From assembly GCF_003334305.1 (NCBI RefSeq), contig NZ_QOWS01000030.1: a DNA stretch of 41,498 bases. The stretch is one strand, 5' to 3'. The position numbers were made by a program, and so were the translations under genes. Below, piece by piece: positions 41,250 to 41,498 of the stretch; position 1 is the first letter of the stretch; each line of letters begins with the position of its first letter. This DNA comes from Escherichia coli (lineage in GTDB: Bacteria > Pseudomonadota > Gammaproteobacteria > Enterobacterales > Enterobacteriaceae). The notes beneath the pieces were generated by a model, which was given only the letters and a program-made list of their open reading frames with translations, made no database searches and was not told the DNA's origin.

Positions 41250-41396
41250 TACTGCTCCTGAACGGTTTACAGGAGTAAGTGTAGACGTTGAGAAATGATA
41301 TTTGTGAAGTTAATCCTGTTGTAGCAGGACAAATTTACGAAAGCCTGCTCCCCGCAAGGACTGACGTCAGGTAGTTTCTAACCATAGCTGCCCTTT

Positions 41397-41498
41397 CTAT
41401 TCAAACGTGAAATCAATAAGCTCATCAGGGACATCGCAAACAATATGAAGACGGATTTCTTCTCTGCCGTGACTCTTTTCACTGATTGCGTAACTGTC
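41397..41498 (-). CDS. ybfD: C-terminal fragment (33 codons plus stop) of an H-repeat-associated, ISAs1-family transposase-like protein, truncated at the window edge; probably ybfD
   Basis: Minus-strand translation from the window edge: [33 protein letters not shown], stop TAG at 41397..41399; this matches a conserved segment of E. coli H-repeat proteins (YbfD/YhhI/YdcC family) as I recall them. Confidence 0.6.

Follow-up and report, generated by a model that had tools for sequence, protein, structure and literature searches.

The right edge of an Escherichia coli sequence window beside ybgA very probably lies in the distal end of the RhsC element, closed by a defective ybfD H-repeat

The window analysed here, the whole stretch of 41,498 nucleotides of Escherichia coli DNA, ends on its right side with a short succession of core and mobile-element-derived features located upstream of ybgA (Table 1). 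The ybgA gene, whose stop overlaps the start of phr (39325-40743, same strand), is preceded by a short leader, then by a spacer, and finally by 174 nt of H-repeat DNA (41325-41498), the coding part of which occupies 41397-41498. Translation of the region 41250-41498 revealed a minus-strand frame of 33 codons (41400-41498) that is closed by a TAG and open at the window edge, minus-strand frames being rich in stops downstream of this TAG. Features were delimited with, among others, a four-way alignment of the window, K-12, an O157-type strain and the empty-site strain EcPF5, in which the 41288-41324 spacer of O157-type genomes is diverged and 63 bp longer.

Table 1. Features from ybgA to the right edge of the window.
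Feature	Position	Strand	Remarks and evidence
ybgA (YbgA/DUF1722 family, 169 aa)	40740..41249	-	First core gene beside the island; ORF list, annotated ybgA in NZ_CP010178
Core ybgA leader, 38 bp, with Shine-Dalgarno AGGAG	41250..41287	-	Common to island-bearing and island-free genomes; four-way alignment, megablast
Accessory spacer, 37 bp, from core DNA to the H-repeat end	41288..41324	.	Absent at empty sites; alignment
H-repeat/ISEc1 3'-terminal 67 bp	41325..41391	-	Positions 1-67 of the 1291-bp reference copy read on the + strand; blastn
Junction of the 313-bp internal deletion	41391..41392	.	Reference L002:2188-2500 or L004:12256-12568; two adjacent blastn segments, gap in subject only
ybfD TAG stop	41397..41399	-	CCTTTCTATTC in the window versus CCTTTCCATTC in intact copies
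ybfD pseudogene, codons 221-253	41400..41498	-	Gene runs on past the window edge

A megablast search of the 299-base query 41200-41498 against 5426 complete E. coli genomes returned a match in every one of them (5426/5426), with 100% identity in E. coli H15 (NZ_CP010178), and the comparison of positions 26200-41498 with the H15 chromosome gave 1 mismatch in 15,299 bases (99.99% identical). Since the window is the same as H15 save one mismatch over 15.3 kb, this genome was used as a stand-in for the right flank, and everything right of 41498 is hereafter read from H15, the window itself holding only 174 bp of the element. In H15, the frame extends to 253 codons and corresponds to ybfD, a gene annotated by PGAP as a pseudogene ("ISAs1-like element ISEc1 family transposase", incomplete, missing C-terminus). 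The extended frame matched NF033564, the NCBIfam equivalog model of ISAs1 family transposases (E=4.4e-88, 295 bits for a cutoff of 70), over profile positions 1-220 of 314 only, against 1-314 for the intact protein. At the DNA level, positions 41392-41498 matched ISEc1/H-repeat copies (ydcC, yhhI and others) with 95-98% identity (megablast, E 1e-39 to 1e-44), and the 1291-bp reference copy with 95.3% identity (blastn, E 2e-44).

The proposal of the preliminary description that an ISAs1-like H-repeat protein reaches the window edge is thus borne out by both the rightward extension of the frame, which does continue as an ISAs1-family protein, and its alignment to the known copies. The 33-aa peptide alone matched no NCBIfam model and is too short to do so; the family assignment therefore rests on DNA identity and on the frame extension in an identical genome. 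A chance ORF in intergenic DNA, for which the 33 codons visible in the window and the unmatched peptide could have been invoked, can be discarded in view of the ISEc1 matches (E down to 1e-44) and of the profile score of the extended frame (E=4e-88). Two details of that description had to be amended. The "last 100 nt" it assigned to the protein agree with the coding part, but the H-repeat DNA starts further inwards, at 41325, with an additional 67-bp segment (85% identity, E 1e-17). Likewise, the end of the frame is indeed contained in the window, but the peptide corresponds to residues 221-253 of a 378-aa transposase, in a truncated pseudogene, and not to the C-terminus of the family.

The architecture of this copy was resolved against a full-length reference, the ydcC copy of strain 1450 (L002:2121-3411, 1291 bp), which is bounded by imperfect terminal inverted repeats with the ends CAGGGCAAGATTACG and CAGGGAAAGATCACG. 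Two adjacent blastn segments relate the window to this reference: positions 41392-41498 correspond to reference positions 2501-2607 (95% identity), and positions 41325-41391 to 2121-2187, i.e. the last 67 bp of the element (85% identity, E 1e-17). The 313 bp between them (2188-2500) are missing from the window copy, with 2 bp (GC) of microhomology at the breakpoints. The deletion is also directly visible in the four-way alignment, as the O157-type strain OkiPb01687 carries an undeleted 378-aa gene at the same position beside ybgA. As a result, the ybfD copy measures 978 bp instead of 1291 bp, short of the ~1.3 kb and of the single ~378-aa ORF of a complete element.

The stop of ybfD corresponds to a TGG-to-TAG change at codon 254 (C to T at 41398 on the + strand), located six bases before the deletion junction, at a site where intact proteins read FTFEWKGLKKL. 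It arises from this nonsense change and not from the deletion. In the intact 378-aa protein, Pfam delineates PF13808 (DDE_Tnp_1_assoc) at residues 8-94 and PF01609 (DDE_Tnp_1) at residues 102-343. Ending at residue 253, ybfD encodes an incomplete DDE catalytic domain, and the deletion takes the last third of this domain, including the conserved HW.VENKLHW.LDV..NEDD block. We take this block to carry the third catalytic residue, E, as in IS4-like DDE transposases. The outer end of the copy is similarly decayed, with an end repeat (CAGGACAAATTTACG, at 41325) retaining 12/15 matches to the intact CAGGGCAAGATTACG. When the terminal-repeat pattern alone was searched across the window, it gave 3 matches for 3.1 expected, which is not above chance; the end of the element is therefore not definable by the repeat pattern, and its position rests on the 67-bp alignment (E 1e-17). 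No obvious direct repeat was found as a target-site duplication flanking the ydcC copy, and no target site is readable at the far end of the ybfD copy because the ybfQ fragment directly adjoins it. While the extended frame is recognised by the transposase profile of the ISAs1/ISEc1 family, this coverage is only partial, and the copy is best described as a defective remnant of the family, and not as a complete member. The ybfD gene is a deletion-plus-nonsense pseudogene, not a short transposase. Transposase activity is presumed lost, given the missing part of the domain, and a copy predicted to be unable to make an active transposase is for that reason more likely a fixed relic than a mobile element.

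H-repeats (H-rpt) were reportedly first described by Hill and co-workers in the 1990s, and several known copies can be set beside that of the window. The closest is ybfD of K-12 (b0706), which shares the locus, the gene, the 313-bp deletion, the TAG and the 253-codon frame, with 98.3% identity over the junction. Intact ISEc1 copies (ydcC, yhhI and the O157:H7-type copy beside ybgA) display the same PF13808-PF01609 order and 95-97% identity over the retained parts. They differ by their full length (1291 bp, 378 aa) and better-matched terminal repeats, whereas the window copy lacks 313 bp and has acquired a nonsense codon and a decayed end. The tandem array itself is variable, with two H-repeat pieces in H15 (ybfD and ybfQ) versus three in K-12 (ybfD, ybfL and ybfQ); the arrays were compared at L001:15126-16484, just right of the window, and L003:9120-11743, and ybfL of K-12 has an internal stop. 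Furthermore, ybfD of H15 is mosaic, combining ybfD-like and ybfL-like sites of K-12, and identity to other copies reaches 95-97% in the retained 5' part but drops to 85% in the orphan 67-bp end. Taken together, the mosaic H15 copy, the arrays of two or three pieces and the contrast in identity (95-97% vs 85%) indicate that H-repeats, both tandem and dispersed, have been reshaped by unequal crossing-over and gene conversion, and not by transposition. This corresponds to the classical "rearrangement hot spot" behaviour.

Right of the window, the H15 chromosome displays in order ybfD (pseudogene), ybfQ (another fragment), ybfC, an rhs core-domain fragment, ybfB, rhsC, ybfA and kdpFABCD. The H15 annotation outside the window thus contains the gene set of an RhsC element (rhsC, 4194 nt, with ybfB, the rhs core-domain fragment, ybfC, ybfQ and ybfD), located where this element is expected, between ybfA/kdp and ybgA/phr. 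In chromosomal position and gene content, it shows no substantial difference from the RhsC element of Rhs locus 5, one of the conserved E. coli Rhs loci listed by Jackson et al. (2009), located between kdpA and phr (PMC2935791). In the genome paper of E. coli W, b0699-b0706 constitute the rhsC region and H-rpt transposition is stated to have never been observed (PMC3032704). The right edge of the window is thus, very probably, the distal end of the E. coli RhsC element, formed by a defective ybfD H-repeat. A ybfD H-repeat closing the RhsC island is an already described and ordinary feature of this species.

The inner limit of the island was located by comparison with the empty site of EcPF5, where ybfA and ybgA are direct neighbours, 100 bp apart. 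Homology between the window and the empty site ends at 41287 by megablast and extends up to 41298 by blastn (L001:15099). Since 7/11 bases of the interval 41288-41298 still match the empty site, the breakpoint is ambiguous within these 11 bp. Homology resumes at L001:23393, in the ybfA terminator (AAAAAACCGCCAGCG...), and the accessory block therefore measures ~8.3 kb, of which the window contains the outermost 211 bp (41288-41498). From this comparison, the core/accessory junction lies at 41287/41288, possibly up to 41298, which is 38-49 bp upstream of the ybgA start. It had previously been placed at the window edge, a position that the empty-site comparison does not sustain, and it does not coincide with the ybfD stop either. 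The accompanying statement that mobile-element DNA abuts ybgA holds, as the H-repeat ends at 41325, 75 bp from the ybgA ATG at 41249.

The distribution of the locus states was established with three junction-specific queries and non-overlapping counts among the 5426 complete E. coli genomes. The window type, i.e. a deleted ybfD beside ybgA with the exact junction, was found in 3093/5426 genomes (57%). The site is empty, with ybfA beside ybgA, in 1309/5426 (24%), including strain 536, and 686/5426 (13%), including O157:H7 strains, have an undeleted or otherwise longer H-repeat junction, leaving about 338/5426 with other arrangements. This genome-wide junction comparison had been suggested as a check of a strain-variable Rhs border, which it supports: RhsC lies to the right, 1309 genomes show an empty site, and ~1000 more are organised in other ways. 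Individual genomes illustrate this plasticity. For instance, E04 carries an IS5 and an integrase-bearing island behind ybfD, and in strain 789, from the undeleted or longer group, 426 bp separate ybgA from a ybfL-like copy. An IS5 with an HNH polymorphic toxin, xerC and a primase is located behind ybfD at L006:7138-12085, and a SymE type I toxin gene at L007:6209-6502, in an Rhs island with no H-repeat beside ybgA. Within the adjacent core genes, divergence between the window and EcPF5 over phr-ybgA (39300-41287) reaches 4-9% per 300 bp, versus ~3% at more than 3 kb from the junction, a pattern consistent with ancient haplotypes linked to the presence or absence of RhsC.

Only 38-49 bp are conserved upstream of the ybgA start, so that any upstream promoter determinants of ybgA-phr would differ with and without the island. 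This is the point of biological interest of the locus: the upstream control region of ybgA-phr is made of different DNA in island-bearing and island-free strains. A consensus scan of 41100-41498 on both strands found no sigma-70 promoter and no intrinsic terminator, and an Rfam scan of 41000-41498 gave no match at E up to 1. By eye, a sigma-S-like extended -10 (TCTACACTT) can be discerned on the minus strand from 41285 down to 41277, within the shared 38 bp, together with a TTCACA-N19-TACACT arrangement whose TTCACA falls in the accessory spacer. The TCTACACTT motif presumably fits the extended -10 of sigma-S promoters, and may be proposed, as a lead, as the putative -10 of ybgA. A sigma-38 promoter named ybgAp1 is listed in the curated set of a bioRxiv study (10.1101/2020.02.05.936344). 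If the assignment of TCTACACTT were true, the -10 would be core DNA, and everything upstream of it would differ between island-bearing and island-free strains. A candidate hairpin involving the ybgA Shine-Dalgarno (CTCCTG-N9-CAGGAG, minus strand 41255-41275, -9.1 kcal/mol) was rejected, its stability being no better than that of shuffled sequences (z = -1.29).

The ybfD H-repeat has lost 313 bp, gained a nonsense codon and undergone decay of its end, and we propose that it is passed on by vertical descent, forming the fixed outer border of the RhsC island. This island is a block of ~8.3 kb (rhsC, ybfB, an orphan rhs tip, ybfC, the ybfQ fragment and ybfD) flanked by the ybfA terminator on one side and the ybgA leader on the other. 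Two other readings deserve to be weighed against this scenario. An intact and currently mobile ISEc1/ISAs1 element beside ybgA could be suspected from the 95-98% DNA identity to full-length ISEc1 copies and from the intact 378-aa gene located at the same position in O157-type strains. The 313-bp deletion, the premature TAG, the degenerate end repeat and the coverage of 220/314 profile positions are nevertheless hard to reconcile with mobility, the PGAP annotation is that of a pseudogene, and the sharing of the same junction by 3093 genomes indicates vertical inheritance and not a recent insertion, so that we consider this reading as all but excluded.

The other reading holds that the relic has a role, either through a domesticated 253-aa YbfD, in which an N-terminal DNA-binding module and a partial DDE domain would act as a regulator or a transposition inhibitor, or through transcription reading through into ybgA-phr and aiding photolyase expression. 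In both H15 and K-12 the 253-codon frame is uninterrupted, the identical truncation occurs in 57% of the genomes, dN/dS between copies ranges from 0.05 to 0.31, and the interval from the ybfD stop to ybgA contains no terminator-like site, which would all be compatible with retention or read-through. However, mosaicism and exchange by gene conversion with the other H-repeats account for the low dN/dS; between recombinant mosaics such values (0.05-0.31) are uninformative on selection, and the ratio was not retained as evidence that selection acts on the truncated frame. In addition, some genomes have frameshifts or stops in ybfD (E04), ~43% lack this form of ybfD or the whole island, and the ybfL-ybfD interval serves engineers as a site for neutral integration (PMC7797564). 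Literature searches on H-rpt, ybfD and ISEc1 turned up no functional work on ybfD. A role for the relic consequently seems very improbable to us, if somewhat less so than current mobility. Were it true, Rhs-positive strains would rely on an IS relic to express the photolyase and its DUF1722 partner, and Rhs-negative strains would rely instead on other upstream DNA, the ybfA terminator. Under the favoured scenario of a vertically inherited, defective island border, the gain is mainly one of annotation, namely the limit of the core DNA (41287-41298), the start of the RhsC island, the pseudogene status of ybfD and the frequencies of the locus states in 5426 genomes.

Further differences were observed left of the island. 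The window contains the ybgD-ybgQ-ybgP-ybgO fimbrial operon at ~27557-32437 (equivalent to L001:1358-6238), of which only a 396-nt fimbrial pseudogene remnant is left in EcPF5 (L005:2840-3235). Between the convergent genes dtpD and phr (39284-39324), the window and EcPF5 have a single REP-like hairpin (CCTGATAAAACGC...GCGTTTTATCAGG), and in K-12 and the O157-type strain the same gap contains ~108 bp more, with a BIME-like REP pair. This difference is a small REP insertion/deletion polymorphism.
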